Positions 14,206-33,295 of a stretch of DNA of 64,000 nucleotides are shown here, piece after piece (positions within the stretch are counted from its first letter, which is position 1; every line of letters starts with the position of its first letter). The notes under the pieces were generated by a model that saw nothing but the letters and a program-made list of their open reading frames with translations, made no database searches and was not told the origin of the DNA. The translations under genes were made by a program, and so were the position numbers. This DNA is from Jiulongibacter sp. (GTDB lineage: Bacteria > Bacteroidota > Bacteroidia > Cytophagales > Spirosomataceae): assembly GCA_965249455.1 (NCBI GenBank), contig OZ252236.1, positions 102,161 through 166,160 on the forward strand, in the 5' to 3' direction.

Positions 14206-14208
14206 TCT

Positions 14209-14694
14209 TTAATTATGATATAACGTGGCGTCTTTTGATTTATACCCTCTAAAATCATTTCTACCTGAGACATAGATACCCTCCTGAAATAGTTCATCTT
14301 CAAAAATCTTGGGATCAATGGCCGAACCAGGGGCAGAAGAAAGCTCTACCAGATTTCCGGAAGGGTCTCTTACGAACATTTGTATAGGTCCGTCCGGCAG
14401 TTGACGCACTTTTCCCCAGGGTGAGGTGTCAATCACACCCAATTCTTTCATTCTCCAGAATATGGTACTGATATCGTCTACCTGCATACACACATGCCCT
14501 CTGAAAGAGTAAGTATCTTCCCATTCTGTCAAATGAAGCTGCTGCGTATCATTAATTTTAAAGAATGCTGTAGGGTAGTCAAAGAGAAAGGCTGGTATGA
14601 CTTCAAGGCCTAATTCTTTTTCATAAAACTCGCTGGTCTCTTCCAGATTATTGACAATTAATGCCACGTGATTTATTCCAATTGCTTTTGCCAT
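14209..14694 (-). CDS. VOC (glyoxalase/bleomycin resistance/dioxygenase) family protein
   Basis: It is 161 aa with an INHVALIVNNLEETSEFY N-terminal VOC fold. Confidence 0.65.
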   Translation of the reverse strand: MAKAIGINHVALIVNNLEETSEFYEKELGLEVIPAFLFDYPTAFFKINDTQQLHLTEWEDTYSFRGHVCMQVDDISTIFWRMKELGVIDTSPWGKVRQLPDGPIQMFVRDPSGNLVELSSAPGSAIDPKIFEDELFQEGIYVSGRNDFRGYKSKDATLYHN

Positions 14695-14695
14695 G

Positions 14696-15865
14696 TTATT
14701 TTATGTTTTGGTTGAATTCTTTCACAAAATCCCAGTTAGGACTTAAACCTAAACCAGGAGCAGAAGGAGCAGCTATCTGCCCGTCATGAGCTTCAATTTT
14801 CTCATTGACTAAATCATACATCATTGGGTTTCCTCCTAAAGAAAACTCGATGATTGTAGCTGCAGGCGAAGCAAATGCCACATTTACCCCAGCCATAAAA
14901 GAAAAGGCCGAACCCCAACAATGAGGTGCCAGCTCCAACTGATAAGCATGGGCCAGTTGTGAAACACGCATTGCCTCTGTGATCCCTCCAATAATGGCGG
15001 AATCTGGCTGCACTACATCTAAAGCTCTGACCTCTATGAGATCTCTGACATCAAAAGCTGTATACTCACTCTCTCCTGCTGCAATAGGTATACAGGTAGA
15101 AGCTCTCACCTCTGCTGTACCTTGCTTATTATCTGGGCTAAGAGGCTCCTCAAACCAGTACAAATCACAGTCTTCCAATTCACGACAGAACTTCTTGGCT
15201 TCAGGAATACTGAAGGTACCATGTGCATCAGTCATCAGTTTGATGTCGTCACCAATAGCCTCACGAGCAGCCTTCACTCTTTTGATACTTTCTTTGACCG
15301 TACCATCCATGCTACCTACCCGCATTTTAACGCCTTTAAATCCTTTGGAGATATAGCTGTTTAATTGCTCGCCAATTTTCTCGGCACCGGCCCAGCCACC
15401 ACTGGCATACGCAGGCATACTTTCGCGGCAGATGCCGCCCAGCAGATCAGCCACAGGAACACCTAACATTTTACCTTTCAAATCCCATAAAGCTGTATCT
15501 ACACCACTCATGGCCGAAACCGTCAGGCCTCTTCTGCCTAATATCGGAAATTTACGACCTCTATCCAAAGCATAATGATCTCGGGTTCCATTGTAAATAT
15601 GCTCCCATATTCTGGTAATGTGGCGGGCATCTTTGCCTACAAGAATAGGCTTAATTTCGTTTTCAATACAGCTGACTATGGAGGCACATGAGCCCGAAGA
15701 GCCTACGGCTGCCTTGGCTTCGCCAAAACCTTGTAATCCGGTATCGGTGGTTACTACCACCAATGTCATATCAAAACAAGTTAACAAACCATAATCTGAG
15801 GTATGTTGCTTTTCTTTAGGAATAGGACAGCTCAGCCAAAAGGCTTCTACATTTGTAATTTTCAT
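14696..15865 (-). CDS. enolase-superfamily (mandelate racemase/muconate lactonizing enzyme) sugar-acid dehydratase-like protein
   Basis: It has the KITNVEAF N-terminal capping domain and a barrel with KxK and D/E/D metal-ligand spacing, at 389 aa. Confidence 0.7.
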   Translation of the reverse strand: MKITNVEAFWLSCPIPKEKQHTSDYGLLTCFDMTLVVVTTDTGLQGFGEAKAAVGSSGSCASIVSCIENEIKPILVGKDARHITRIWEHIYNGTRDHYALDRGRKFPILGRRGLTVSAMSGVDTALWDLKGKMLGVPVADLLGGICRESMPAYASGGWAGAEKIGEQLNSYISKGFKGVKMRVGSMDGTVKESIKRVKAAREAIGDDIKLMTDAHGTFSIPEAKKFCRELEDCDLYWFEEPLSPDNKQGTAEVRASTCIPIAAGESEYTAFDVRDLIEVRALDVVQPDSAIIGGITEAMRVSQLAHAYQLELAPHCWGSAFSFMAGVNVAFASPAATIIEFSLGGNPMMYDLVNEKIEAHDGQIAAPSAPGLGLSPNWDFVKEFNQNIK

Positions 15866-16746
15866 AGGAGAGGTCTAAGAGTATCGATCGATTTTTTGGT
15901 TAGCATGGTATAAAACTCCTCGGTAACGGCGGAGCTCCCGTGATCTTCCAGAAATTTCTTCTGCTCGCTGCTGAGGCCTTCCGGCTCATGCTCTATTGAA
16001 TTCGGATACGGATTGGCGGGTGTTCTGTCTAATGGCGAACAGAATTCTACAGACAATACATCGTCATAGCCAATTTCGCCAAGGGTGCTGATGATTTTTT
16101 CCCATTGCAGCGTGCCCATGCCCGGAGCCATTCTGTTATTATCGGCCACATGAAAGCCTACCAAACGCCCCTTGGCTCTTCTGATAGCCTCAAACATATC
16201 GTCTTCCTCAATGTTCATGTGAAAAGTGTCAAGACACACTCCACACTTCTCGCCCGTAGCCTTTGCTAAGGCAAGTGCCTGATCTCCTCTGTTCACAAAA
16301 TAGGTTTCGAAACGATTAATGGGCTCAATGCCTATTAAAACGTTTTGAGCCGTGGCGTATTCATATATTTCCTGCATTCCGGCTACGGCCCAGTCCCACT
16401 CTTCTTCAGGACGGCCATCAGGGATAATCTTCCCAACAGTACCCGGCACTACAGAAACCATTTTTCCCTCTAACTCACTGACCATTCGTACTACGTCTTT
16501 GACATACTGTACTGATGCAGCACGTTGTTTTTTGTCTTTGGCCAGCAGGTTGCGTTGCTCCAGCATCAATGTCACAGAGCCCCAACAGCTCAGACCGGCA
16601 CTATCGAGCAACTTTTTAATTTTTTTGGTATCATACATTTCAGGACTTCCCTGAATTTCTAAACTGTCATAGCCTAATGCGGAAATTCTTTCCAAAGTCT
16701 GTTCTATTGACTCTGCCCGCATCCAATTATGAATGGAAATTTTCAT
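15862..16746 (-). CDS. sugar phosphate isomerase/epimerase (xylose-isomerase-like TIM barrel)
   Basis: It has a TIM-barrel AP-endo-2 fold. A 4-nt overlap with the downstream gene suggests translational coupling. Confidence 0.7.
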   Translation of the reverse strand: MKISIHNWMRAESIEQTLERISALGYDSLEIQGSPEMYDTKKIKKLLDSAGLSCWGSVTLMLEQRNLLAKDKKQRAASVQYVKDVVRMVSELEGKMVSVVPGTVGKIIPDGRPEEEWDWAVAGMQEIYEYATAQNVLIGIEPINRFETYFVNRGDQALALAKATGEKCGVCLDTFHMNIEEDDMFEAIRRAKGRLVGFHVADNNRMAPGMGTLQWEKIISTLGEIGYDDVLSVEFCSPLDRTPANPYPNSIEHEPEGLSSEQKKFLEDHGSSAVTEEFYTMLTKKSIDTLRPLL

Positions 16747-16788
16747 TGTGATTATGGTTGAATTTTTATTTCGAGCTTCTGCTCAAAT

Positions 16789-17781
16789 TTATTTAATAAT
16801 TATTGGCTTTAAGCCTGGTTTGAATTTGTCTCCAAAACCTGAATTATTCGGATCGTAAGATCCTTCAAAATCAACATTGACCCCCTCTTCAGGAATCTCC
16901 GATTCTTTCCCCAAAGCCCAATACATACCATTGATGGCAAGCTTACGCATGTTCTCATTTTTGAAATCGTAAGGATGCCCCAGAGTGGTAAAGAAAACTC
17001 TTGCCTTTTTACCTGAAGTACCGGTGTAGGACTTGGTCCATGCTACGGGGTTAGTCAAAGGAAACTTATCCAATTTACCGTTTTTCTCATGATTTGACCT
17101 CAATGACCTACCCTCTAAAAAAGGTTTAGAATCCCCTGATAATTTCCAGTCGCCACCATCTACATGATAGAGCCAGGAAAAAGCATCAAACGGCTCTACT
17201 CCGTTAAGAATAGGGGTCTCAGCCTCAGGCAAAATACTGACAGAGGTTAGCTCACCATGACCATCTGCAAAATGCCCGTGATGTGTGATCCACTGCTGAC
17301 CAAATACTTTGGCAGGCCATTCATTATTTAAATGCATCATACTTGAATCTTTATAGAAAAACGTATGCGTGGCAGTTCTGAAACCAACCATTGGTTTTCC
17401 TGATTCTGCATAATCTGTGATGTATTTTGCTTCATTTTCAGGTAAGGCCCTGAAACGGGCAAACATCACCATAAGATCAGCCGTTTGAAGTGCCTCAAGA
17501 CCTTGTATATGATCAAGCCTGTTAGGATCTATAGTGCCGGTACTGTCAACAGAGTAGCATAAACTGATATCAGCATCTAACTCCCGTTTCAGAATTTTTG
17601 CCAGCATGGGCATTGACTCTTCAGACCTGTACTCCTCATCGCCTATCACAAAAACTACATGAGGTTTTTTCACAGTTTCCTTAGTAGAGGAGCATGCACT
17701 CAAAAAAACAGCCGTCACCAGCAAACCAAGAAAGGTGCTTATCATCTTATTCTTTAAAAAAGTATTCGGTTTATTTTTCAT
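16789..17781 (-). CDS. ThuA domain protein (class I glutamine-amidotransferase-like), lipoprotein
   Basis: It has a lipobox (FLSACSS) and a ThuA-like core (MVMFARFRALP...GKPMVGFRTATH). I chose the start at the MKNKPNTF methionine. Confidence 0.65.
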   Translation of the reverse strand: MKNKPNTFLKNKMISTFLGLLVTAVFLSACSSTKETVKKPHVVFVIGDEEYRSEESMPMLAKILKRELDADISLCYSVDSTGTIDPNRLDHIQGLEALQTADLMVMFARFRALPENEAKYITDYAESGKPMVGFRTATHTFFYKDSSMMHLNNEWPAKVFGQQWITHHGHFADGHGELTSVSILPEAETPILNGVEPFDAFSWLYHVDGGDWKLSGDSKPFLEGRSLRSNHEKNGKLDKFPLTNPVAWTKSYTGTSGKKARVFFTTLGHPYDFKNENMRKLAINGMYWALGKESEIPEEGVNVDFEGSYDPNNSGFGDKFKPGLKPIIIK

Positions 17782-20700
17782 CATTCTCATGTGGGTGCAT
17801 TTTGAGTAATTCACTGGCAATGTAAAAGTCTTTTTTGTCTTTCGTATCCTGCCTTACCTGCTTGACTTTCTCCGGAGAGACGGCTTTAGCCAGATTTCCA
17901 AATGAATTACGGATATAGGTAAGTACAGAAGCAATTTCTTCATCATTCAGCATTCCGCCAAAAGGCGTCATCGGTACTTGTCCAGGATATGATTTACCAG
18001 CCACGTCAATAGGACCGTAAAGACCATTCAGGGTGATTTTTATTAACCTTTCTTCGCTGCCCTGCACCCATTCATTGCCAGATAAAGGAGGAAATCCTGA
18101 AGATTCTAAGCCTTTACCATCCGGCTGATGGCAAGTGCTACAGTACCCTTCTCGCTCATATATCTCTCTGCCTTTAAGATAAGATTGTTGTTCTTCTTTT
18201 GAGAGCATAGCAGGCAGGGGCACAGATTCTCCTTTCTCAGGTTTGTACGGCACCATATGTGATAAAATAGCTTCATATGGTTTTTGCATCCAGTCGTCCA
18301 AAGGCTTTTGAGCCACCAGGGTTAACACTTCCTTGGCTGTTTCGTTATCAAGCCACGAGGCTGCCACCATCGCCTCAAATCGTACTCTGCTGTTTCCGTC
18401 TTTGGCTGCTTTTTTTAATAAAGCTACCTGATCAGAAATTTGATGATCACTATAACGCAATACTTTAACTGCAGCCGTTCTGACTTTATAATTTTTCGCC
18501 TTCAATGAGGCCTCAAGAAGTTCTCTTGACACTGCATTCATTCCCCATGAAACCCAGAGACCTTCTAAAACAAATCGCTCATAATCGGGATGCTTTTTAT
18601 CTAATGACGCCGTCCATTTATTTAAGGCAGTCATTACTTCTTCTTTGTCTCTTGCTCTTAGTTCTCTTCTGCTTCGGTATCGTGTTCGGTACTCCGGAAG
18701 TTTCAGATTGTCTAATAATTCGGTTATGGACGCTCCATCTACTTTGGCCGGTTTCACCAAAGGCCTGGATGGATACGTAATACGATATATTCTGCCATGT
18801 ACATGATCTCTCAGCGGATCACGGGCATTATGCTGCATGTGACCTACCAGTACATTGTGCCAGTCTACCAGATACAAGGAACCGTCCGGAGCAAACTCCA
18901 TGTCTACCGGTCTGAAGTTCGGATCATCACTGGTGACTAAGTCTAATCTGTGCTTAGTCTTATAGCCTGTTCCGTCATCAATCACCTGATGCATTTTGGT
19001 ACCCAGGAAGCCAATGGTGTTATTAATCATCATATCGCCCTGAACTTCCTCAGGGAAATGTCTGCTATGAACAAACTCTAAGCCTGAGGTAGGCCGCACT
19101 CTGTGTTTCTCTTCTATCAGATCTTTTGAGCCAGGATTAGACAAGCCGTATTTAGATTTAATGGTACCGGGCATCATCCACTCTACATTGGGGCCTGAAG
19201 TATGAGCAAAAAAGTTTTGGCCCCATTGATCAAAGGCAATACCCCATGGATTAGGAATAGGCAACTGAGCCGTACGCTCTAATTTTTTTCGTTGCGGGCT
19301 GTATCTGTAAAAACCACCATTAGTCGCTCTTACGGTTCCATAAGGAGTTTCTACATTGGTATGAAGGAAAACACCCTCTCCCATATAAATTGCCCCGGAA
19401 GGGTCGGCACAAAAAGCACTGATCACATGGTGTGTATCATGGTCATCAAAACCACTTAAAATAATCTCTACCTTATCAGCATGATCGTCTCCATCTGTAT
19501 CGGTATAAAGTTTCAGGTTGGTACCCTGCGAAATGTACACACCCTCGGTAGCAAACTCGAAACCTGCCGGAATGTGCAAATTATCTGCAAACACCGTTGA
19601 TTTGTCTGCTTTATAATCTCCGTCTGTGTCTTCCAGAATGATAATTTTATCGTTGGGTTTAGGATCACCCGGCCTGTAATGTGGGTAGGTAGGCATAACC
19701 GCCACCCAAAGTCTTCCTTTACTATCAAAAGAAATCTGAGAGGGGTTAGCTAACTCAGGAAAGTCTTCTTCTGAAGCAAATAGCTCAATTTTATAACCGG
19801 GAGCCATATGAAATTTGCTCATGGCCTTATCACCATAAAGGTATTCTACCTTATCTGTCAATTTAAAATTGGTCTCAATGGGCGATAACTTTTTCGTTTT
19901 GGAATCAGCCAGAGCAAGGTCATAACTTTCTCCCTGTAGGGTTTTCCAGATCAAGGTATCTCTGTTGGCCGTCATTTGATGAACTTTGACGAGCTCTTCA
20001 GGATAATTTTCATTACCAAAAGGTCTGTATCGTCTTCCGAAAACATGGACACCATTCGGGATTTTATAATCATTGTGCCACATCCAGTTCTTTTCCAGCA
20101 CTGCCGCTTTCACTTTATCCTTCAGAGAGCTGTTAACAAACATTTTCTTTCCAAAGACGCCATCTGCCAGCAATGTAGAGAACTGTTTATAGCCATCATC
20201 ATTAAGCTGAAGGCCGTCAATTGTGTATTCTTTGCCTTTTTCAAACCACTCTTTTGAAGGATTAAAGGCATCCACAAACAATACATCATATTTGCCGGCT
20301 ATTTCCTCAATTGCCTTTGCATATAGTTTAAGATTTTCATTCTCTTTCTTACCATCAGGAAGGTCATACTTTGAAGATAAATCCTGAAAGGCTATGGGCG
20401 AAACCAAAGCCAATTGCGGAGCAGAGGTTTCATTGTATTGCTGGGCTCTGGTATGTTCAATAAACGCAGAAAGCTCTCCCTTAAAGTTCTCTACACCCGC
20501 TTCTCCTTCGTAAGACTCTGAAAAGCCAAAACAAGCAATGATAATATCCGTTTTATTTTTTGCTAACCATTGATCGGGAGTTTCAAAATGCCCCTTACTT
20601 CCGGAGTTTTGTGCCAGATCTGTCTGAAACATTTCTGCTCCCGGAAAAGCCCATGGCGAATCCCGGCCCGAGTGTGGTCTGAAACCCGGCGTATCTCCTC

Positions 20701-20935
20701 CATCACACATATTTCGGATATAAAGGTTATGCTCCGGATACCTCATATGCAGCTCGGTCTCAAAATAACCGTAGTTCATCATTCGGGAACAAAGGTTATT
20801 TCCAATGAGACTAATATGAGCCCCTTTAGAGACACTTAAATAGTTCTTATTTGTGGCAAAACGACTAAGCACCAAAATGGCACAAACCGCCAGCACTAAA
20901 GACCAGACGGTTCTATAGCGTAATTTAGAAGACAT
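17771..20935 (-). CDS. giant PVC-type c-type cytochrome dehydrogenase: SGNH/GDSL-hydrolase-like N-domain, beta-propeller dehydrogenase domain, HEAT repeats and CxxCH heme domain
   Basis: It is 1054 aa with an N-terminal signal anchor. It contains a GDSL-like region, a propeller (DSKGRLWVAVMPTYPHYRPGD...), HEAT repeats, and a C-terminal GYCSTCHQPDGKG heme site. Confidence 0.7.
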   Translation of the reverse strand: MSSKLRYRTVWSLVLAVCAILVLSRFATNKNYLSVSKGAHISLIGNNLCSRMMNYGYFETELHMRYPEHNLYIRNMCDGGDTPGFRPHSGRDSPWAFPGAEMFQTDLAQNSGSKGHFETPDQWLAKNKTDIIIACFGFSESYEGEAGVENFKGELSAFIEHTRAQQYNETSAPQLALVSPIAFQDLSSKYDLPDGKKENENLKLYAKAIEEIAGKYDVLFVDAFNPSKEWFEKGKEYTIDGLQLNDDGYKQFSTLLADGVFGKKMFVNSSLKDKVKAAVLEKNWMWHNDYKIPNGVHVFGRRYRPFGNENYPEELVKVHQMTANRDTLIWKTLQGESYDLALADSKTKKLSPIETNFKLTDKVEYLYGDKAMSKFHMAPGYKIELFASEEDFPELANPSQISFDSKGRLWVAVMPTYPHYRPGDPKPNDKIIILEDTDGDYKADKSTVFADNLHIPAGFEFATEGVYISQGTNLKLYTDTDGDDHADKVEIILSGFDDHDTHHVISAFCADPSGAIYMGEGVFLHTNVETPYGTVRATNGGFYRYSPQRKKLERTAQLPIPNPWGIAFDQWGQNFFAHTSGPNVEWMMPGTIKSKYGLSNPGSKDLIEEKHRVRPTSGLEFVHSRHFPEEVQGDMMINNTIGFLGTKMHQVIDDGTGYKTKHRLDLVTSDDPNFRPVDMEFAPDGSLYLVDWHNVLVGHMQHNARDPLRDHVHGRIYRITYPSRPLVKPAKVDGASITELLDNLKLPEYRTRYRSRRELRARDKEEVMTALNKWTASLDKKHPDYERFVLEGLWVSWGMNAVSRELLEASLKAKNYKVRTAAVKVLRYSDHQISDQVALLKKAAKDGNSRVRFEAMVAASWLDNETAKEVLTLVAQKPLDDWMQKPYEAILSHMVPYKPEKGESVPLPAMLSKEEQQSYLKGREIYEREGYCSTCHQPDGKGLESSGFPPLSGNEWVQGSEERLIKITLNGLYGPIDVAGKSYPGQVPMTPFGGMLNDEEIASVLTYIRNSFGNLAKAVSPEKVKQVRQDTKDKKDFYIASELLKMHPHENDEK

Positions 20936-21042
20936 AATTTCTTTTATAGGGTTGTAATTATCAAGTTGACAAGAATATCTAAAAATATAAACTTATTCTC
21001 AATATCGTTGTACGAAAGTCCCACACTTGCACGAAAAGCTCT

Positions 21043-21083
21043 TTTTTGAGCAAATAGAGTACACTTTTTGAGACAAATAGTAC
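21043..21083. promoter_or_regulatory. tandem direct repeat TTTTTGAG(C)AAATAG(AG)TAC x2 in the divergent promoter region
   Basis: TTTTTGAGCAAATAGAGTAC (21043-21062) is immediately followed by TTTTTGAGACAAATAGTAC (21065-21083). The pair lies between the start of the 1054-aa dehydrogenase operon (20935, minus) and the GT2 start (21162, plus). Confidence 0.4.
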
Positions 21084-21161
21084 CATCAGAATCCTTCAAG
21101 GAATTCGGTTAAATGTCAGACTCCGGAATTTTATCATCCATCCATCATTTTTATCCGTAGA

Positions 21162-21893
21162 TTGAACCTAAAAAGTAAGCCCCATAACCTAGCCTCAAAC
21201 CCCACAGTTTTGATAAGTATAATTATCCCTACATACAATGAAGCTGCTACTATTCGACCTTGTTTGGAGAAGCTTAGTGGTGCGAATATTGAGGTAATCC
21301 TTTCTGATTCACCTCATTCTACGGACAATTTGCAGTCGGTAGTTGAGGAGTTTGGTTTCACTTATAATCAATCAGATAAAGCGGGCAGGAATCATCAGAT
21401 GAATGCCGGAGCAAAACTTGCCAAAGGAAGCATCCTGTATTTTGTTCATGCTGATACGCTGATACATGAGGATTTTGAACAAGATATTCTTCAGGAAATA
21501 AGTAAAGGAACCGACCTGGGATGCTATCGATATAAGTTTGACAAATACCATCATCCTTTGATGCATATCAATTCATTTTTTACGCGTTTCCCAATGATAT
21601 GGTGCAGAGGCGGAGATCAAACTCTTTTTATCAAGAAACGGGTTTTCGAGGAATTAGGTGGCTTTTGTGCTGAGCACCTGATTATGGAGGATTATGATAT
21701 CCTCATCAGAAGTAAGGGAAAATACACCTTCTCAATTGTCCCGAAAAACGTGATTGTCTCTTCAAGAAAATATGAAAAGAACAGTTATTGGGGCGTTTTG
21801 CGAGCAAACTATATTGTAATGAATAAGTGGCTCAAGAAAAAAGCGAGTCCCGAAGAACTACAAAACACTTATAAAGAACTCTTAAACAACTAA
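21162..21893 (+). CDS. family 2 glycosyltransferase of the arsenosugar-biosynthesis-associated type (TIGR04283-like)
   Basis: It has IIIPTYNEAATI (DXD-type GT-A N-terminus) and forms a conserved trio with the next two genes. Confidence 0.65.
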   Translation: MNLKSKPHNLASNPTVLISIIIPTYNEAATIRPCLEKLSGANIEVILSDSPHSTDNLQSVVEEFGFTYNQSDKAGRNHQMNAGAKLAKGSILYFVHADTLIHEDFEQDILQEISKGTDLGCYRYKFDKYHHPLMHINSFFTRFPMIWCRGGDQTLFIKKRVFEELGGFCAEHLIMEDYDILIRSKGKYTFSIVPKNVIVSSRKYEKNSYWGVLRANYIVMNKWLKKKASPEELQNTYKELLNN

Positions 21894-21896
21894 ATT

Positions 21897-22229
21897 ATGG
21901 AACAGTATTATGATCCTAAGGATCTGAAGAAATTTGGAAACATCAGTGAATATGGAAAAGAACTAAGCGATAAGTTTTTTGCTTACTATGGCGAAGTTTT
22001 CAAAGAAGGGGCTTTAACAGCCCGAGAAAAAGGCTTGATAGCCCTGGCCGTAGCTCATGCCATTCAATGCCCTTATTGCATAGATGCATACACTACAGAC
22101 TCTATAGAAAAAGGTTGCTCTGAGGAAGAATTGATGGAAGCCGTGCATGTAGCTGCCGCGATCAGAGGAGGAGCCTCTCTTGTCCATGGGGTTCAGATGA
22201 TGAATAAATCTAAAGAGCTGCTAATGTAA
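21897..22229 (+). CDS. AhpD-like/carboxymuconolactone decarboxylase family 'arsenosugar biosynthesis-associated peroxidase-like' protein
   Basis: It is 110 aa with a CPYC redox motif (AHAIQCPYCIDAY). Its stop overlaps the next start (TAATG). Confidence 0.65.
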   Translation: MEQYYDPKDLKKFGNISEYGKELSDKFFAYYGEVFKEGALTAREKGLIALAVAHAIQCPYCIDAYTTDSIEKGCSEEELMEAVHVAAAIRGGASLVHGVQMMNKSKELLM

Positions 22230-23296
22230 TGGTTAAAAATCCTGTAAAATCTTTAAAAGCCCAGAAACACGAGTTGGGCGATACCGCTTTTCAGCTCAAA
22301 GTTCTCAACGATACCGACTGCCTTGGTTTCTCAATGCCAAAGTTTAAGGAAAAGCTTGAAGAGAGTGATCTCTTCCCTCTAAAACCTACTTCACTGGAGG
22401 TATTGCAGATTAATATGGGCAAAATGTGCAATCAGGTATGTAATCATTGTCATGTTGATGCGGGGCCAGACCGTAAAGAAATTATGACCCGAGAGACCAT
22501 GCTGCTTTGTCTGGATGTGATCAAAAAAAATAATTTCACCACTGTAGACCTTACAGGCGGTGCACCGGAAATGAACCCTGATTTCAGATGGTTTATTGAA
22601 GAAATCAGAGCCATTTCTCTGGATATCAAAATAATAGTACGCTGCAATCTGACCATAATCAGAGCCAATCCGAAATATTACGATTTACCACACTTCTATA
22701 AAATTCATCGATTAGATGTGGTAAGCTCTTTACCTGCATACACAGAATCCAGAACAGACGCTCAGCGTGGAAATGGCGTTTTCAAAGACTCTATTAAGGC
22801 ATTGCAAATGCTCAATGAAGTAGGCTACGGAATAGAAGGAACGGGCCTAACGCTTGATTTGGTCTATAACCCTTCAGGGGCGTTTTTACCGAGCGGACAG
22901 TCCGGGCTGGAAATGAACTTTAAACGTAAACTCAAAGCTGATTTTGATATAGAATTTAATCATATTTTTGCTATTACTAATATACCCATCAGCCGGTATT
23001 TAGACTACCTTATTGTATCCGGAAATTACGGAGCATATATGGAGAAACTGGTGAATGCCTATAACCCTGCTGCCGCTAAAAATGTGATGTGTCGAAACAC
23101 TCTTTCCATTGGCTGGGATGGTTACATTTTTGATTGTGATTTTAATCAAATGTTGGATTTAAAAGTGGCTTGTTCTTCTAAACATCTGAAAGACTTTAAC
23201 TCTGAAGAATTAATTAACAGATCTGTCATTGTGAACCAGCATTGTTATGGCTGCACCGCTGGTGCGGGAAGTAGCTGCGGGGGTGAGGTGGCTTGA
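22229..23296 (+). CDS. arsS: radical SAM protein with Cys-rich C-terminal tail (ArsS-type, arsenosugar biosynthesis radical SAM protein)
   Basis: It has the CNQVCNHCH radical-SAM CX3CX2C cluster and a C-terminal CYGCTAGAGSSCGG motif, at 355 aa. Confidence 0.7.
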   Translation: MVKNPVKSLKAQKHELGDTAFQLKVLNDTDCLGFSMPKFKEKLEESDLFPLKPTSLEVLQINMGKMCNQVCNHCHVDAGPDRKEIMTRETMLLCLDVIKKNNFTTVDLTGGAPEMNPDFRWFIEEIRAISLDIKIIVRCNLTIIRANPKYYDLPHFYKIHRLDVVSSLPAYTESRTDAQRGNGVFKDSIKALQMLNEVGYGIEGTGLTLDLVYNPSGAFLPSGQSGLEMNFKRKLKADFDIEFNHIFAITNIPISRYLDYLIVSGNYGAYMEKLVNAYNPAAAKNVMCRNTLSIGWDGYIFDCDFNQMLDLKVACSSKHLKDFNSEELINRSVIVNQHCYGCTAGAGSSCGGEVA

Positions 23297-23341
23297 TATT
23301 ACAATCAGCTTAAAGCCAGCACATTGCGGTGATGAAATAGC

Positions 23342-23380
23342 AACCCCTGACACAGATCAGGGGTTATTTTCATCTTTTTT
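23342..23380 (+). terminator. rho-independent terminator after arsS
   Basis: The hairpin AACCCCTGA-cacaga-TCAGGGGTT is followed by ATTTTCATCTTTTTT. Confidence 0.6.
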
Positions 23381-23414
23381 AGATACAAATCAGGGGTTAT
23401 TTTTTCAAAATACG

Positions 23415-23528
23415 ACACAAATCAGGGCTTATATGATAAGAAAAAATCCTATCACCTCTCTTCAATCCTCAAAACCCGCTCTGCGAAGGCTCTGCCTTCG
23501 TTTTTGCGAATTACGGCCTCTGGCCGAT
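23415..23528. repeat. about 115-nt intergenic repeat element, copy A
   Basis: It reads ACACAAATCAGGGCTTAT...CCGCTCTGCGAAGGCTCTGCCTTCG...GGCCTCTGGCCGAT and is about 80% identical to copy B over its full length. Confidence 0.7.
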
Positions 23529-23714
23529 GCTAGGAGAAAATCGACTATTTTTTTGAACTTACAAATGGTTTCAAAAGAGCCAAAAATCTGTTACTCAAAC
23601 CAGAGTTTTGAGATCACCCGAAGCTATAAGCTTTGGAGAGCGGGGTGGTGAGGTGGCGTAGAGACTATATAATTCTATTATGCCCTCTTTAAGTAAATTG
23701 GCGGGAGATATTCA

Positions 23715-23829
23715 ACACAGATCAGGGGTTATTTGATAGAAAAAATTCTATTACCTCACTTCAGTCCACAAAACCAAGTCGCCGCGAAGTCTCCGCCTTT
23801 GCTGAATTGAATATAGGCCTCTGGCCGAT
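23715..23829. repeat. about 115-nt intergenic repeat element, copy B
   Basis: It reads ACACAGATCAGGGGTTATTTGATAGAAAAAAT...GCGAAGTCTCCGCCTTTGC...GGCCTCTGGCCGAT. Confidence 0.7.
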
Positions 23830-24346
23830 ATTTTATACATTTTTAAGTTTGATTATGCCATACTCAAACAAGCGTTTTGAAATCACTTTGGCCATACTGC
23901 CGCACCGCTGAAACTTGTCTGTATAATTGTTATTTCGGGGAGCAAGAGAAACCAACATGCAGCGAATAATTGCGATATTTGATGCAGAAATTGCAACGAT
24001 TATTTTCAAGTTGCTTTATCCAACTTTTTAAATCACACAAATTAATCTACAGTTTTAGTAGAATAGGTCTTATTGGTTATCTCGATGGAGGCTTTTGTCC
24101 TTCTATTCAAGTTTAGTAATGATTGATTGCTTTTTTGCCTTGATCACGCCTTAACCAGTTCTCTATAATTGACTACAATCTGAGTTATAAAAACCCTTAT
24201 TTCACTTTAAGGAATGTATCCTGAGATATAAATTATCATATTGTACTTTTAGTGAATAAAATGAAATATAAAACTCCTAATCTGGAATTTAGATCAGAGG
24301 TTGTTTTTTGGTATTTAACTCAAATCACAGTTTACTCGCTCTGCGA

Positions 24347-24373
24347 GGGTCAGGCGTTCTGACATTAATTCCG
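24347..24373. repeat. partial copy C of the same repeat family
   Basis: TCGCTCTGCGAGGGTCAGGCGTTCTGAC matches the CGCTCTGCGAAGGC core. Confidence 0.5.
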
Positions 24374-24544
24374 TTTAGAAATGGTAAAAAATAACAAACT
24401 GCAAAAAGCTAACTTGACTATTAGAAAATTTAGATAGTTTTAATAAAAATAGATGAAACACAGCTTACTAAATAGTCACTGACCACATGGAATTGGCTAC
24501 TGCATGGCTGAGCTTCTTCTTCACCAACATTATAGTTAAGCAAA

Positions 24545-25045
24545 ATGATAATTCGAATGACGAATCTCCTCTTTGTATTATACCTCTTCGGCTGCGGAGA
24601 AATCTCTTCAACTGACCTTAAAACTGAGTCAACCAACCAAGTTGAACAAACCCAGCCTTCAGACGACTTAGTAACAGGTTGGTACTACTTGACAGATGAA
24701 GAAAATGGAATTAAAAAAAACTTGTATGGTTCAGACGAAATGTATTTTATTAGCCCAATACCAATTGTTACAATTGACAATTTTACTGACCTTGAAATTT
24801 ATCAAAGTGACTTTGGTGACTATGGCTTGACAATTCGACTTGACGAAAAAGGAAGAAAAGAATGGAGTGAAGCAACAGGAAAATCGACAGGCCAGAAATT
24901 AGCCCTGATAATCAATAACGAACTCTACTTTACGCCAATTGTGAATTCCCAAATTGACTTTGGAATAACAGCTCTAAATCGTGGTGACTTGACAGAAGAT
25001 GAATTGAAAGAGATTAAAATGAAAATAGAACAAGAAAAGAAATGA
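24545..25045 (+). CDS. hypothetical lipoprotein
   Basis: It has a lipobox (LFGCG) after a hydrophobic N-terminus. It sits in low-GC, repeat-flanked DNA and has no recognisable domain. Confidence 0.5.
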   Translation: MIIRMTNLLFVLYLFGCGEISSTDLKTESTNQVEQTQPSDDLVTGWYYLTDEENGIKKNLYGSDEMYFISPIPIVTIDNFTDLEIYQSDFGDYGLTIRLDEKGRKEWSEATGKSTGQKLALIINNELYFTPIVNSQIDFGITALNRGDLTEDELKEIKMKIEQEKK

Positions 25046-25158
25046 AAAAACCCTCTTGACCATTAAAAATAAAATATATTGAATTGACTTAGTGAAAACT
25101 TGCAAGTTGATTGCAATTACAGTCCTACTTGCAAAATACTAGACTTAGCTTCGATAGA

Positions 25159-25749
25159 ATGAGCTCCGAGAAGATTGAAAAATATATAAAAAAGGCATTT
25201 CCAGAGCACTGGTTTGATTATGCACGCGAATTAAAGGACGCCTCAATGGAATTATGGCAAAGTCATAAAAATGTATATATCGCATATTCGACTTATGAAG
25301 AGGGAGATTTTTTTCGAAAACTATATTCGAGGACTTATTTTCTTTTAATGGGGTTAGCAATAGAGAATTTGCTTAAAGGTATATTAATTTCAGAAAATCC
25401 AGAATATATTCTAGATGGTAAAATAGATAAGGAAATTTCAAGTGGGCACAACTTAGAGGCTTTATTAAAAAAGGTAGGGTCAATAAATTTCATGGATAGA
25501 GAAATTGAAATTTGCAGAACCCTAAGTCAAGTAATTCCCTATTGGGGGAAATATCCAATCCCAAAAAACTTCAGTATGCTTAAAAATGAATTATTTATGA
25601 CAGAAGAATGGTTTGAAGAATTATTGAAACTGTATACAAAACTGGAATTTAAATTATGCGAATTAAACATCAATGGAATTAAAGGCCCAAACAACATAGA
25701 TTTCCCAAGACTTTTTGTTGAAGGAGTATCTGACAAAGTAAAAATTTAA
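25159..25749 (+). CDS. hypothetical protein (orphan, low GC)
   Basis: The ORF runs 25111-25749 and I chose the internal ATG at 25159. I recognise no family. Confidence 0.4.
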   Translation: MSSEKIEKYIKKAFPEHWFDYARELKDASMELWQSHKNVYIAYSTYEEGDFFRKLYSRTYFLLMGLAIENLLKGILISENPEYILDGKIDKEISSGHNLEALLKKVGSINFMDREIEICRTLSQVIPYWGKYPIPKNFSMLKNELFMTEEWFEELLKLYTKLEFKLCELNINGIKGPNNIDFPRLFVEGVSDKVKI

Positions 25750-25845
25750 CTAACACGGAATGTAAAATAGGCCATACAGCTACCTACAAACTTTAAGAAA
25801 TATTCAAAAAGCTGATTTGGCTTCTAAAGCGAAACATCATAAGAC

Positions 25846-25903
25846 TCTCGCTCTGCAAAGGCTAAGCCCATTGTTTTTGTCATAAGCGGCCTCTGGCCAA
25901 TAT
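25846..25903. repeat. partial copy D of the same repeat family
   Basis: CTCGCTCTGCAAAGGCTAAGCC...TTGTTTTTGTCATAAGCGGCCTCTGGCCAATATTT aligns with the 3' half of copy A. Confidence 0.6.
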
Positions 25904-26057
25904 TTGACTCAAAAAGTTAATCTTAAATTCTTGAATCTAAAATAACAACCTCTCAAACCAAGAAATTAGAATTCTTTCACTGAAACAAGATTCCAAATAG
26001 TGCAGGCTTTTGACCGGCTCATTGAATTATCTGCAATTCGAATATTGAATTTCTATC

Positions 26058-26825
26058 TCAATATTTCAAAGAGTAAGTAAGAATTGCAGAACCTATTGTT
26101 CCGTTTCTATCTATTAAAACTTCTGATACTCTGCCGTGTTCATCAAAGGTGTAACTGAAGCTAAGTGTTGTAGTCTCTCCCTGTTCTTCAAAAGTGGCCG
26201 TTTTAATCAGGTGGCTACTGTAATGCCCTAGGAAAGAATCTCTGAAGGTCCAATGAACAGCTGAAGGACTAAGCACCTCTTGTCTTATGTTATTTTCATA
26301 ATCAGTATAAGTGTAGGTCGCTTTTGTGCCAAGAGTTTCAACCATAGATTGTAGATCGCCCTCAGGGCTATAACTGAAAGTCCTTGTTGTATTTGCATAC
26401 ATGAAAACCAGAAAATCATTTTTGTAATAATAGCCAGCCGTACGGTTATCAGATATTGCCAGTCCGTTTTTATCTAACTGATAAATTAATGGTTCTGTGG
26501 AAGCATTCACTATCAGTTTATTCCCATTGTATTCGTAGTCATAAAGGTTCATTTCAGCTACGGTTACATTCTTTATTTTACCATCCTGAGAATAGCTCAA
26601 TTTAATGGGAATATTTGAGGAGCCTTCAGCATCCTTAAATTCTAGTTTCAGGTCGATATGGCTTATGGCCAATTGCTCAGTACCTGACGACTTAATTTCC
26701 GGCAGTTCACTGAGTTGTTCTTCAATTGATTTTCCCTGTGGGAACACTTCGTTTTCAGGGGTATCATCTTTACAAGAAAGGAAAGAAGTGGTTAATAAAA
26801 CCAAGAGATAGATGTTCGTTTTCAT
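26058..26825 (-). CDS. hypothetical lipoprotein
   Basis: It has a signal peptide with a lipobox (SFLSCKDD). I chose the start at MKTNIYLL. Confidence 0.5.
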   Translation of the reverse strand: MKTNIYLLVLLTTSFLSCKDDTPENEVFPQGKSIEEQLSELPEIKSSGTEQLAISHIDLKLEFKDAEGSSNIPIKLSYSQDGKIKNVTVAEMNLYDYEYNGNKLIVNASTEPLIYQLDKNGLAISDNRTAGYYYKNDFLVFMYANTTRTFSYSPEGDLQSMVETLGTKATYTYTDYENNIRQEVLSPSAVHWTFRDSFLGHYSSHLIKTATFEEQGETTTLSFSYTFDEHGRVSEVLIDRNGTIGSAILTYSLKY

Positions 26826-26891
26826 AGGGCTAATTGTGTTTGTATGAATCGTAACGATAACTGTCAAAGCTTATTACTCTAAAGAAACCAT

Positions 26892-28655
26892 TTAATTCTG
26901 CAACCTTTCCATTTCCACATAAAAGGGGAAAATGCGTTTCCCGGCCGAAACATAAAACGGAATAAGGTCACAAGTACCCTGAGAGAGTTTAATACTATTC
27001 ATCTCGACCCTCTCCAGATTTTCTCCCTCGAATACCTTCTTAAACACTTTTGAACCCACTTCTAAATACATTGTTCCGGAGCTTACAGGCTTGATAAATT
27101 TGAAGACTGCCTTATATTTCCCCTCATTTACGGAGACTCTCCATTTGCCATAGACCTCCTCCTGAGCCCAAATTCCCCTTTCTCCTCCGGCATCATTTCT
27201 GTTTAATATTATTGGATTTTCCTGCTCAGCTCCCACAACTATTGGTGGTTGATTCACTAAATGTACAGAGCTTATTAAACTATGATATTGTTTGTCGAAC
27301 TCTTTTTTAAGAGTTCTGGCTACCTCTTTCTGCTCTACATTAAGATTGACTTCCTCTCCGGGATCTGAGTTAATATTATATAATTCGAAGTCTGTCATTT
27401 CTGCATCAAAATCTGTCATACCAACTAACCGGTAATCACCCATTTGTAAAGCAACGTTATTATATAACTCCGGGTACCGTCTGGCCCATGAAAAGAACAA
27501 GGGTCTGTCTGCCCAGCTTACTTCTTTTCCTTCCAATAAGGGTAGTAAGCTGTGCCCATCTAATTCACGATCCTTAGGCAATTCTAAATTACATATTGCT
27601 GCCAGCGTGGGAAGTATGTCCATATGGGTGGCTGTTACATTAATGCTTTTTGCTTCGGGGTATTTCTGAGGATACCTTAGCATCATTGGCACACGAACGC
27701 CTCCTCGGTACACCATCGTCTTACGCCCCCGCATACCTCCGGTAAATCTTTTTTGTTGCGGCCCATTATCAGTCATAAAAATAAGGATCGTATTCTCAGC
27801 AATTCCCAGTTCCTCAAGTTGAGTCAAAAGCTTTCCGATATTATCATCAATATTGCTGACCATTCCATAGACCTTTCGGGCATCTTCCTTATCCCTTTCT
27901 GTCATTTCAGGCAGATTGTCTACATCTTTAAAACCTTCAGACGGATCAATATCTTTATACATATCGTAATACTTCTGAGGCAATTGTAAAGGCGTATGTG
28001 GAGCATTGAAAGCCAGATAACAAAAGAAAGGATTCGCCTTGTTTTGCTTAATAAAATTCATGGCTTCCGTTACGAATATATCTGAGCAATATCCTTCAAA
28101 GGCTTTCTGTTTTCCATTTTGCCATAATATAGGGTTGAAATAGCTACTGTCTCCTTTAAAATATGTAGTTATGTCTCCTACCTGACCCATCCCGCCGGAG
28201 AGATGTATTAAGGATTCATCAAAACCCTGATCCATAGGTCGGGAAGGATAATTATCGCCCAAATGCCATTTGCCAAAAATCCCTGTGGTGTAATTAGCCT
28301 TTTTCAGAAATTCGGCAATCGTTACTTCATCTGTATGCATGATAGCTCCGCCGTTATAGGTATCTCTAATTCCGGTCCTAAGCGACTGCCTCCCAGTCAT
28401 TAAACTGGCACGTGTAGGGGCACAAACAGGTGATACGTAAAAGCTATTGAATAGAATACTGTTTGCCGCCAATTCATCAAGTACAGGTGTTTTCACATGC
28501 CGATTTCCTGTAAATCCAAAATCACCATAACCCTGGTCATCTGTCATGATGAGGATGATATTGGGCTTGTCTGGAGTTTCAGATTTCTCTGGTTTTGAAC
28601 AGGCTAAAAAAACAGAACATACAGACAGACTAAGCAGCAGAGAGAATTTTTCCAT
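26892..28655 (-). CDS. sulfatase (formylglycine-dependent arylsulfatase family), lipoprotein
   Basis: It has the PVCAPTRASLMTGR CxPxR formylglycine motif, a signal peptide with a lipobox (FLACS), and 587 aa. Confidence 0.85.
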   Translation of the reverse strand: MEKFSLLLSLSVCSVFLACSKPEKSETPDKPNIILIMTDDQGYGDFGFTGNRHVKTPVLDELAANSILFNSFYVSPVCAPTRASLMTGRQSLRTGIRDTYNGGAIMHTDEVTIAEFLKKANYTTGIFGKWHLGDNYPSRPMDQGFDESLIHLSGGMGQVGDITTYFKGDSSYFNPILWQNGKQKAFEGYCSDIFVTEAMNFIKQNKANPFFCYLAFNAPHTPLQLPQKYYDMYKDIDPSEGFKDVDNLPEMTERDKEDARKVYGMVSNIDDNIGKLLTQLEELGIAENTILIFMTDNGPQQKRFTGGMRGRKTMVYRGGVRVPMMLRYPQKYPEAKSINVTATHMDILPTLAAICNLELPKDRELDGHSLLPLLEGKEVSWADRPLFFSWARRYPELYNNVALQMGDYRLVGMTDFDAEMTDFELYNINSDPGEEVNLNVEQKEVARTLKKEFDKQYHSLISSVHLVNQPPIVVGAEQENPIILNRNDAGGERGIWAQEEVYGKWRVSVNEGKYKAVFKFIKPVSSGTMYLEVGSKVFKKVFEGENLERVEMNSIKLSQGTCDLIPFYVSAGKRIFPFYVEMERLQN

Positions 28656-28808
28656 AAAAGGCTTCGATAGGGTGTTTCAGACCGAATTTACGGAATAATT
28701 GAGATATCGGTAATATCGCTCCAGATATTCCAGATCTTTATGAAAGGGCTTTATACAACAGCTTAAAAAAGAAGAAACGAGCTATCAGTATACTAATAGC
28801 TCGTTTCT

Positions 28809-30317
28809 TTAATCTTCTCTTGGTTCTTTTCGTCTTGCATCTGCCATTCGAACTATCCTCGGGTGAAAAGAAGCAATTGGTTTGACTAATTCAGTTTGTG
28901 CATCAATAACTTCATGAATATTCTTGTACACCATTGGAGCTTCATCCAGATCGCTTCCAATCAATTCAATTCCCTGATCTCTCAGGATTTTTCTGACCTC
29001 AGATTCATCAACATTTTTAAATGCAGCTGTTCTACTCATTACCCGGCCCGCACCGTGTGAAGCCGAATTGATGGAAGCCTCATTTCCTAGTCCTTTCACA
29101 AGAAAACCCGGCGTTGCCATTGATCCTGGAATTATCCCCAATTCATCTTTGGAGGCAGGTGTAGCACCTTTTCTGTGAACCAAAACATCTTTACCCATAT
29201 ACTTTTCCCGCCAAGCAAAATTATGGTGATTCTCCACCATAAGAATCGGTTTCAAATTCAGATCACTGGCCATTTTGTTATGGATTTCGTGGTGATTCGC
29301 TGAAGCATATTCGCCTGCTAAATTCATAGCTATCCAATATTCCTGCCCTTCCTCTTTATTAAGGTCTAGCCAAGCAAGATGTGAAGCCTCACCGGGCAAC
29401 TTAGTTACCTGCCGTGCAATTCTTGTGTAATAACTAGCAATGGTTCCACCAAAGCCACGTGACCCAGAATGCGATAGCAAAGTCAAATACTGACCCATAG
29501 GTAAACCAATGGCTTCATCAAACTCTTCTATCTCTAAAACTCCCCATTCTACGAAATGGTTACCAGTGCCTGAGGTCCCCAATTGTTTGTAGGCCTTATC
29601 CTTCAAATCATTAATTACTTTTGTGGCATTCCATTCAGCCTTGTCCATAATTGAGGCATCATACTTATGCCTTATCTCTCCGCCTATTCCGAACTGGGCA
29701 TTCTTGCCCAGAAGCGTTTTAAGCATATCAGACTCCTTTTGTAAAACACTTGAAGGCAAATCAAAAACAGACATGCACATTCTGCAAGCAATATCAACGC
29801 CTACGGCATAAGGGATGACCTTATCAGGCTCTGTGGCCAAAACACCTCCAATGGGCAAGCCGTATCCCTGATGAGCATCAGGCATAAGAGCACCACCTAT
29901 AGCTATAGGCAATTGCATGGCAACATTCATCTGGTTAAAAGCTCCTTCTTCAATATACTCACCTCCATAGACAGGGAAATCCAGTATTTCAGGTTTTAAT
30001 TCAAATTTACTGGAATCCAACTCCCTTTGAGTTTTAACCGGAAATTCAGAAATGGTTTGCTCCAGAAGAGCCTGCCCTGCTTTAGTAAGTTTTATGGATA
30101 TTCCATTGTCAGACTCTTTGACTAGCAAGCGAGCCAGCTTAGTCAGCTTATTTTTCCTTTTAGCAGCAGCTTTGGGGTGGTCAAAAAGCTTTACAAGTGC
30201 TTTGAGAATGTCTTCTTCTCCCCACCCTGCTTTGGTTAATAGCCCTTCTGTTACCCGGGTAACTCTAGGTATAATTTCGGCGGGGATTTCCGCAATCATT
30301 TTTATGCTGTTTTCCAT
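28809..30317 (-). CDS. rtcB: RtcB family RNA 3'-phosphate/5'-OH ligase with N-terminal extension of about 80 aa
   Basis: It carries the RtcB signature motifs MPDAHQGYGLPIGG, HSGSRGFG, ENHHNF and SASHGAGR, and a C-terminal ...KPIASFHPRIVRM. Confidence 0.85.
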   Translation of the reverse strand: MENSIKMIAEIPAEIIPRVTRVTEGLLTKAGWGEEDILKALVKLFDHPKAAAKRKNKLTKLARLLVKESDNGISIKLTKAGQALLEQTISEFPVKTQRELDSSKFELKPEILDFPVYGGEYIEEGAFNQMNVAMQLPIAIGGALMPDAHQGYGLPIGGVLATEPDKVIPYAVGVDIACRMCMSVFDLPSSVLQKESDMLKTLLGKNAQFGIGGEIRHKYDASIMDKAEWNATKVINDLKDKAYKQLGTSGTGNHFVEWGVLEIEEFDEAIGLPMGQYLTLLSHSGSRGFGGTIASYYTRIARQVTKLPGEASHLAWLDLNKEEGQEYWIAMNLAGEYASANHHEIHNKMASDLNLKPILMVENHHNFAWREKYMGKDVLVHRKGATPASKDELGIIPGSMATPGFLVKGLGNEASINSASHGAGRVMSRTAAFKNVDESEVRKILRDQGIELIGSDLDEAPMVYKNIHEVIDAQTELVKPIASFHPRIVRMADARRKEPRED

Positions 30318-30351
30318 TTTTTTCTATTTGATACTACAAAGCTGGCAATCG

Positions 30352-30374
30352 TCTACGCAATCTTTTTGCGTAGA
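30352..30374. promoter_or_regulatory. perfect palindrome TCTACGCAA-tcttt-TTGCGTAGA (candidate operator) in the rtcB/regulator divergent promoter
   Basis: It has 9-bp perfect inverted arms with a 5-bp spacer and lies between the rtcB start (30317, minus) and the WYL regulator start (30420, plus). A half-site, TTTACGCAAA, overlaps the regulator ATG (30411-30420). Confidence 0.65.
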
Positions 30375-30419
30375 TAGCAGAAAGTTCTAATTTGCTAAAA
30401 ATAAGTACAGTTTACGCAA

Positions 30420-32548: not shown

Positions 32549-32559
32549 TTGGGTACGTG

Positions 32560-32884
32560 TTTAAGTTAAAAAATAATAAAGCCGCTTAACCCGGGTTATC
32601 CGCAGAAAACTGCTGACGGGGTCCCCCTTAAGAACAGCTGGGGGTGGAACGTTCCAGTAGATCCTTGTGAACTCCATTTAGTATCAGATGTACTTTTTGG
32701 TGAAAACAAGTATCGACCAGAAGGTTTCACTCTTCGTCATTCGGTATCCGGGCGGCCCGGCCGAGCTCCTGTGATCACTAAGACCTGGGCAAGCCGGGTT
32801 AAACGGTGAGTTTTGCCATTTTTGGGCTGACAGCCCTTTACAGATTAACGGTCTGTTGCATTAACCAATATGCTTCAGGTAACT
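32560..32884 (-). other. GC-rich, hairpin-dense non-coding segment between the tRNA-like array and the SPFH gene (structured leader or unknown ncRNA)
   Basis: There is no ORF of 60 aa or more. Local GC is well above the flanks, with many strong hairpins (GGGGTCCCCC, GGAACGTTCC, CCGGGCGGCCCGGCCGAGCTCC) and two AACCCGG(C/G)TT motifs. Confidence 0.35.
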
Positions 32885-33160: not shown

Positions 33161-33194
33161 TTTGTTGTCAATTGACTGTACAAAGGTTTTGCAG

Positions 33195-33215
33195 TAGTAC
33201 GCAGCCTTTTTGCGT
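33195..33215. promoter_or_regulatory. second copy of the TACGCA-N7-TGCGTA palindrome, upstream of the tRNA-like array on the minus strand
   Basis: GTACGCAGCCTTTTTGCGTAG matches CTACGCAATCTTTTTGCGTAG at 30353-30373 in 17 of 21 positions, with identical spacing. Confidence 0.6.
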
Positions 33216-33295
33216 AGGTGAAAAATTTCTTACTTTTTATTATTGTGGCAATTGGGTAGATTTTACTAATAATAGTACATAACTATTCTATGAAA

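Follow-up and report, generated by a model that had tools for sequence, protein, structure and literature searches.

What does a gene trio of arsenosugar type do in a stretch of DNA that holds no arsenite methyltransferase? The question is raised by a 64-kb window of Jiulongibacter sp. (the whole stretch that was analysed, 64,000 nt), in which the list of open reading frames (ORFs) has three abutting plus-strand members, at 21162-21893, 21897-22229 and 22229-23296. They encode a family 2 glycosyltransferase (GT2), an AhpD-like protein and the radical S-adenosylmethionine (SAM) enzyme ArsS. We propose, with a probability of roughly two in three, that the trio is a core operon, compact and specific to its clade, of the known ArsS pathway of arsenosugar type.

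ArsS turns dimethylarsenite (DMAs(III)) into DDMAA (5'-deoxy-5'-dimethylarsinoyl-adenosine), from which adenine is removed and whose ribose is then derivatised, and in Synechocystis arsM and arsS are co-transcribed (PMC13598754; 10.64898/2026.04.29.721666; 10.1101/2022.09.23.509062). For arsenosugar biosynthesis by arsM-arsS in Synechocystis sp. PCC 6803, PMC12159101 and 10.1101/2022.09.23.509062 cite Xue et al. (2019) as well as Cheng et al. (2021). Throughout, labels of the form L0xx denote ArsS loci and those of the form P0xxx denote proteins.

Identity of the three proteins

All three proteins pass the cut-offs of their NCBIfam models, in agreement with an original prediction, made from the window alone, that had described a Cys-rich-tailed ArsS, an AhpD-like partner with a CPYC motif and a TIGR04283-like glycosyltransferase. 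ArsS (22229..23296, plus strand, 355 aa) scores 431.5 bits against the equivalog model TIGR04167 (cut-off 300), spanning model positions 2-302 of 303. Its Pfam domains are Radical_SAM (PF04055) and a C-terminal DUF3641 (PF12345, 179 bits). The radical SAM motif CNQVCNHC has the spacing CX3CX2C (C67, C71 and C74), and the C-terminal tail CYGCTAGAGSSCGG carries three further cysteines (C339, C342 and C350). The Cys-rich tail HCYGCTAGAGSSCGG is invariant in the alignment.

Among positions that are at least 95% conserved across 84 other ArsS sequences, both ArsM-linked and others, the window's protein keeps 136 of 138, and the two changes are both conservative (L/I and I/V). Because so many conserved positions are kept, a different substrate for ArsS, which the original prediction had offered as one option for the trio, is not favoured; nothing in the sequence points to one. 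A search of the PDB by sequence returned no ArsS structure. A structural model built from a 10-sequence alignment has a mean predicted local distance difference test score (pLDDT) of 71 and a predicted template modelling score (pTM) of 0.74, with low confidence in the Cys loops. Its fold neighbours, at template modelling (TM) scores of about 0.5, are radical SAM enzymes of the SPASM/twitch type, such as SkfB, CteB, anSME, MoaA, BlsE and DesII. The model fits the family assignment and does not inform on the substrate.

The closest biochemical reference is best stated as a likeness with a difference. Like the Synechocystis enzyme, the window's ArsS belongs to TIGR04167 and combines a CX3CX2C motif with a Cys-rich DUF3641 domain, and the reaction to be expected of it would be the same, the addition of a 5'-deoxyadenosyl radical to DMAs(III) to give DDMAA, which the literature documents for the Synechocystis enzyme only. 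Its setting differs, in that arsS and arsM share a transcript in Synechocystis, whereas the window has no arsM in 64 kb and its arsS has GT2 and AhpD-like partners upstream.

The AhpD-like protein (21897..22229, plus strand, 110 aa) scores 185.1 bits against TIGR04169, the 'arsenosugar biosynthesis-associated peroxidase-like protein' (cut-off 120), and contains the CMD domain (PF02627). The motif QCPYC can be read in its sequence, with C58-P-Y-C61 of active-site type, and its relatives in the PDB are AhpD/CMD proteins. It is as conservative as its partner, keeping 40 of 41 conserved positions, with a single change.

The glycosyltransferase passes its model narrowly, with 187.4 bits against TIGR04283 (cut-off 182), while the next best family reaches 31.7 bits; its Pfam match is Glycos_transf_2 (PF00535, 67 bits). 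The mechanical ORF begins at TTG 21162. The true start is probably TTG 21210, because alignments of homologues begin at 21210/21213 and because L088, a close relative of the locus, has stop codons immediately 5' of the conserved LISIIIPTYNE. The gene so defined (21210..21893, plus strand) encodes 227 aa. Of the positions at least 90% conserved in the family, it keeps 31 of 38, including the N-terminal IPxxNE motif and the H-A-D and G-D-Q motifs.

Operon architecture

The genes are tightly packed. GT2 and the AhpD-like gene are separated by 3 nt, and a TAATG overlaps the AhpD stop with the ArsS start by 1 nt, an overlap that the original prediction had read correctly. Because these two genes overlap, their products are probably translationally coupled. 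A terminator-like hairpin lies 46 nt past the ArsS stop (23342..23365, plus strand; AACCCCTGA...TCAGGGGTT), with a stem of nine pairs, five of them GC, followed by the T-rich tail ATTTTCATCT. Located by a consensus scan only, it probably marks the end of the transcription unit.

On the upstream side, the divergent intergenic region between GT2 and a minus-strand gene for a 1054-aa cytochrome c/DUF7133 protein (20936..21209) presumably holds the promoter of the trio. Sigma-70-like matches within it are only at consensus level and do not exceed those in shuffled sequence, and the promoter was not located; the Bacteroidota -7 motif TAnnTTTG was not found in the region upstream of GT2. A scan of 20.8-24.7 kb against Rfam gave one sub-threshold chance match and nothing else.

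A clade-specific arrangement

The contiguous order GT2-AhpD-ArsS occurs in the window and in four relatives, which together make up the Marinilongibacter clade, and in none of 80 other Bacteroidota loci listed. The closest named relative of the window's ArsS is that of Marinilongibacter aquaticus (L081; 81% identity). The other three relatives are L082, from a 5.01-Mb genome and 98.5% identical in DNA, L088 (ArsS 87% identical) and L085 (85%). Among these five genomes the trio has three different flanks: it is divergent from a cytochrome c/DUF7133-ThuA dehydrogenase operon in the window, L082 and L088, it follows a sigma/anti-sigma pair in L085, and in M. aquaticus it forms the 3' end of a tightly packed row, SusC-SusD-SSF-Metallophos_2-GT2-AhpD-ArsS. 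The nearest outgroup ArsS proteins, from Emticicia (L086) and Lacihabitans (L087), are 74-77% identical, and both of their genes lie immediately upstream of ArsM.

The three genes move together, and purifying selection acts on them. All the trio's ORFs are intact in the five genomes, and the packing and gene overlap are kept. Between species, synonymous divergence (dS) is saturated, while non-synonymous divergence (dN) stays at 0.08-0.15 (AhpD and ArsS) and 0.29-0.44 (GT2); in comparison with the nearest strain, dN/dS amounts to 0.13-0.20. On the loci compared, the arrangement is a rearrangement specific to this small group of freshwater Bacteroidota.

This history also counts against the idea that the trio is what is left of a larger arsenosugar cluster in decay, with no present function. 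Most of the partners known elsewhere are indeed missing, and a strain-variable region adjoins the trio, but reading frames that stay intact through saturated synonymous divergence, low dN and the retained packing make decay highly improbable.

Comparison with other Bacteroidota ArsS loci

The 80 comparison loci listed (ArsS identity 59-69%) exclude the source genome itself, and 48 of them are full-context loci, flanked by at least 8 kb on either side. ORFs around the 80 ArsS genes were clustered, and hidden Markov models (HMMs) were built for the recurrent families. AhpD lies directly upstream of ArsS in 71 of the 80 loci (89%), and a DUF2064 protein (TIGR04282-like) is found in 41 of the 48 full-context loci. 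Purine nucleoside phosphorylase (PNP; NF006054) and the dedicated 'arsenosugar biosynthesis arsenite methyltransferase ArsM' (AsSugarArsM; NF038099, an example scoring 570 bits against a cut-off of 400) each occur in 36/80, rhodanese (NF045521) in 30/80, and GT2, within 10 kb, and DUF547 in 27/80 each. Three full-context loci carry AhpD-ArsS alone.

Judged by this gene content, AhpD-ArsS and DUF2064 form the conserved core of the system. The lack of an arsM close by, which the original prediction had treated as an oddity, is unremarkable, because 26 of the 48 full-context loci have no ArsM within 10 kb (22 do); it is the majority state in Bacteroidota, and the absence of DUF2064 is the rarer feature. 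Nor does the description of a 'conserved trio' survive the comparison, given how often GT2 is missing from within 10 kb and that it is never directly upstream of AhpD outside the clade.

Three kinds of known system help to place the locus. The first is the extended cluster seen in Aequorivita (L070) and Winogradskyella (L069 and L072), with the order AhpD-ArsS-rhodanese(NF045521)-DUF2064(TIGR04282)-PNP-AsSugarArsM(NF038099)-FA_hydroxylase-DUF547-GT2(TIGR04283)-Pyr_redox. Its AhpD-ArsS pair and TIGR04283 glycosyltransferase are orthologous to those of the window (ArsS 59-69% and GT2 about 35-45% identity). The window, however, holds only three of these roughly ten genes, with GT2 relocated directly upstream of AhpD, and none of the rhodanese, DUF2064, PNP, ArsM or DUF547 genes. 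The second comprises transporter-linked loci, in which (DUF2064b)-SusC/RagA-SusD-SSF-Metallophos_2 stand beside AhpD-ArsS; examples are L081, Emticicia L083 and L089, Lacihabitans L084, Maribacter L054 and L076, and Saprospiraceae L031. These include the closest relatives of the window's ArsS (71-81% identity), and in M. aquaticus the trio is identical in order and sits at the 3' end of the module. The module itself is not in the window, where only a generic SusC at 22% identity is found. The third, the ArsL/ArsM arsinothricin pathway of Burkholderia gladioli, also makes its C-As bond with a radical SAM enzyme, but ArsL moves a 3-amino-3-carboxypropyl group and belongs to another family, and the window's protein has no ArsL-like signs.

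The transporter module deserves description in its own right. It consists of a SusC/RagA TonB-dependent receptor, SusD, an SSF-like permease and a Metallophos_2 (YfcE-like) phosphoesterase, and it occurs at no fewer than 11 ArsS loci from three Bacteroidota classes, beside or inside the ArsS clusters and orthologous across loci (46-78% identity). It spans 2038-8971 in L081, 11177-18168 in L083, 11132-17965 in L084 and 4325-11391 in L089, and is also present at L031, L047, L054, L065, L075, L076 and L079; L059 has SSF and Metallophos_2 only. A second DUF2064 paralogue (TIGR04282 80 bits, below cut-off) often accompanies it. Its recurrence suggests an uptake step linked to the chemistry of ArsS, of which we have met no earlier description.

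Other variations on the cluster were seen along the way. Two DUF2064 paralogues per ArsS cluster are found at L005, L006, L011, L047, L051, L065, L075 and L079, with HMM scores of about 250-290 for one and about 140-200 for the other, and the lower-scoring type tends to adjoin AhpD-ArsS or the SusC module. In Emticicia sp. SJ17W-69 (L086, 7359-8348), a homologue of MtnK (S-methyl-5-thioribose kinase) stands between DUF2064 and AhpD-ArsS-ArsM; its score against TIGR01767, 108 bits, is below cut-off, and it may be an alternative to PNP yielding a ribose-1-phosphate analogue. At L012 (about 12185-13200), from a metagenome-assembled genome of an uncultured Bacteroidetes bacterium, ArsM appears to be divided over two adjacent ORFs (HMM 453 and 194), a split that might stem from a frameshift, from pseudogene formation or from faulty assembly.

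The missing methyltransferase

The original prediction had found no arsM or other ars genes nearby, and this holds across the window. In the 64 kb, tblastn searches that used 36 AsSugarArsM sequences and the DUF2064, PNP, rhodanese, DUF547, FA_hydroxylase and Pyr_redox families of related loci (E <= 1e-3) matched the trio genes only, and no class-I methyltransferase glycine motif occurs among the window's ORFs of at least 100 aa. Between 1.7 and 54 kb, the scanned ORFs have no Pfam domain of ArsR, ArsC, Acr3 or ArsB; their content is sugar metabolism, sulfatases, two-component systems, RtcB and transporters. At the same E-value threshold, the 1.25-kb non-coding stretch directly 3' of ArsS (23297-24544) holds no relics of DUF2064, PNP or ArsM. 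In the four clade relatives, none of ArsM, DUF2064 and PNP lies within 10 kb of the trio. Only one clade member, L085, has a small TehB/UbiE-like SAM methyltransferase of 209 aa (927-1556, minus strand), at a distance of 8 kb on the upstream side of the trio; nothing in the window corresponds to it, and its presence is probably a coincidence.

Beyond the window, ArsM was sought by proxy, with the Fibrella and Lacihabitans proteins as queries against a collection of 5.8 billion proteins. No ArsM from the clade's three complete genomes (5,128,938, 5,007,758 and 4,635,932 bp, the last being M. aquaticus) was among the best 120 matches of either search, in which canonical ArsM was not sought, and none of these matches bore the name Marinilongibacter. 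ArsM proteins of Emticicia, Lacihabitans, Telluribacter, Spirosoma and Hymenobacter are among those listed. In a set of 36 loci, the identity of ArsM rises with that of ArsS (r = 0.82, residual standard deviation (SD) 1.9%), and interpolation predicts about 81 +/- 2% identity between the Lacihabitans query and a co-inherited ArsM of the clade; the matches listed go down to 77%. The negative search is informative for the Lacihabitans query and for NF038099-type ArsM only. Within those bounds, we lean towards the absence of a dedicated AsSugarArsM from the three complete genomes, a view that depends on interpolation. One candidate, P0314, was considered as a clade ArsM and rejected, as it comes from an unrelated genome with a standard AhpD-ArsS-Rhod-DUF2064-ArsM cluster.

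A proposed route

By analogy with the Synechocystis enzyme, the window's ArsS would add the 5'-deoxyadenosyl radical of SAM to dimethylarsenite, yielding DDMAA. The AhpD-like protein could act as its thiol-disulfide partner, either keeping and delivering the arsenical in trivalent, thiol-bound form or reducing the Cys-rich tail of ArsS. PNP would then produce a ribose-1-phosphate analogue from DDMAA, a step for which, to judge from related loci, a nucleosidase and an MtnK-like kinase might substitute. The gene content suggests that the CofC-like DUF2064 protein probably activates this analogue to a nucleoside diphosphate (NDP) sugar, and that the inverting glycosyltransferase may form the last beta-riboside bond, to a glycerol-type acceptor. 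The presence of PNP, DUF2064, AsSugarArsM and the MtnK-like kinase in related clusters supports this order of steps.

Within this scheme the window's operon would supply ArsS as the first committed step and GT2 as probably the last, with substrate supply and the middle steps provided in trans. The operon would not be self-sufficient, because the window has neither the middle-step genes nor ArsM. Dimethylarsenite and the middle steps might come from unlinked genes, from housekeeping enzymes of methylthioadenosine (MTA) and purine salvage, or from uptake of environmental methylated arsenic.

Weighing the explanations

Several observations sit uneasily with an arsenosugar operon of the known kind. 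DUF2064 was not found within 10 kb of the trio in any of the five clade members, though it is the second most constant partner elsewhere, and this absence is awkward for an NDP-sugar route. The glycosyltransferase clears its TIGR04283 cut-off only just (187 versus 182), and 7 of its 38 conserved positions are changed in at least one clade member, four of them (A77N, P102H, L134M and G226K/H) in all four; GT2 may be adapted, or merely under less constraint. A canonical ArsM, or a divergent one of arsenosugar type, may be encoded elsewhere in the genome. The literature, finally, yielded no demonstrated roles for the AhpD-like (TIGR04169), GT2 (TIGR04283), DUF2064 (TIGR04282) and PNP proteins. 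These points temper our conclusion, which is carried by the family assignments, the near-complete conservation of ArsS and AhpD, and the purifying selection on the trio.

The alternative that survives best is an ordinary complete pathway with scattered genes, in which ArsM (of NF038099 type or canonical), DUF2064 and PNP are encoded elsewhere on the 5.13-Mb chromosome and arsenosugars are made from arsenite as in Synechocystis. It is a sub-case of the core-operon reading, differing only in the source of dimethylarsenite. Splitting of the cluster is common, as the loci without a nearby ArsM and the three with AhpD-ArsS alone attest, and AsSugarArsM is present in the sister genera Emticicia and Lacihabitans. 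Against this stands the lack of a clade ArsM among the best 120 matches to the Lacihabitans query, whose 77% floor lies about 2 SD under the predicted identity, canonical ArsM not being covered. We regard such a scattered pathway as possible, if somewhat unlikely.

More doubtful is the proposal that the Marinilongibacter clade does not itself encode an arsenite methyltransferase and that the trio salvages environmental methylated arsenic, for example algal or cyanobacterial dimethylated arsenic (DMA). The arsenical would be imported, in M. aquaticus by the co-operonic SusC/SusD/SSF/phosphoesterase module; the AhpD-like protein would keep it trivalent, ArsS would adenosylate it and the diverged GT2 would glycosylate the product. 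The joining of the transporter module to the trio in M. aquaticus is a hint in this direction. A literature search on arsenic in Marinilongibacter found nothing.

It is also conceivable that the substrate is not arsenic at all, and that ArsS adenosylates another soft nucleophile, such as a selenium, sulfur or phosphorus compound, with GT2 processing the product. The 64 kb without ArsM, DUF2064 or PNP, the divergence of GT2 with its barely passed cut-off, and the inclusion of selenoprotein forms in the ArsS family, according to its NCBIfam name, could all be read in this way. The two conservative changes among 138 conserved ArsS positions and the equal conservation of AhpD argue otherwise, as does the adjacency of ArsM to the closest ArsS relatives (L086 and L087), and we consider a non-arsenic substrate improbable.

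The compact, clade-specific core operon thus remains our preferred account. The question that is left is a modest one, the source of dimethylarsenite; otherwise the locus is an ordinary member of a known system.

Neighbouring genes

The trio is divergent from a dehydrogenase operon, as the original prediction had stated and the gene order confirms. This seven-gene operon (10622-20935, minus strand) is kept in L082 and L088. Its domains, read via the 98.5% identical L082 locus, are those of a 1054-aa GDSL/DUF7133/HEAT/cytochrome c protein, ThuA, AP_endonuc_2, MR_MLE (enolase superfamily), Glyoxalase, 2-Hacid_dh and an 875-aa cytochrome c, and it looks like a periplasmic sugar-oxidising system. 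A functional tie between the trio and these genes could be imagined from the divergent arrangement, which persists in L088 at 87% ArsS identity, but the operon is not beside the trio in L085 or M. aquaticus and its genes are not recurrent neighbours in any of the 80 other loci listed, which leaves very little room for it. Because it adjoins the trio in only three of the five clade members, the operon appears from its distribution to be a neighbour of the trio and not a partner.

On the other side, the non-coding stretch 3' of ArsS has no Rfam match and contains a direct repeat of about 300 nt (about 23415-23660 and 23715-23890) and a 20-mer, ACACAGATCAGGGGTTATTT, that is present there in four copies and at no other place in the window. 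Past the 3' end of ArsS, the window (23529-33790) differs from L082 (11270-16073), a strain that is otherwise 98.5% identical. An extra segment specific to the window (23529-25998) is bounded by repeat copies and contains two small ORFs of low GC content (about 33%). At about 26840-33790, the window encodes a sulfatase, RtcB, WYL/WCX and Band_7 proteins; L082 there encodes a Por_Secre_tail protein.

Implications

As it stands, the significance of the locus is small, as NCBI annotation models already name all three genes. The use of the comparison lies in defining a conserved core, AhpD-ArsS plus DUF2064, and in suggesting an order for the accessory genes, with PNP or the MtnK-like kinase acting before DUF2064 and DUF2064 before GT2. 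It also singles out a clade with three complete genomes, including that of the cultured M. aquaticus, which may lack a dedicated ArsM. If the salvage proposal were true, heterotrophic Bacteroidota would have a route to arsenosugars that needs no ArsM and is fed by uptake. M. aquaticus, in which the trio is joined to a module for uptake at the outer membrane, would be well suited to show whether heterotrophs make arsenosugars from scavenged methylated arsenic.

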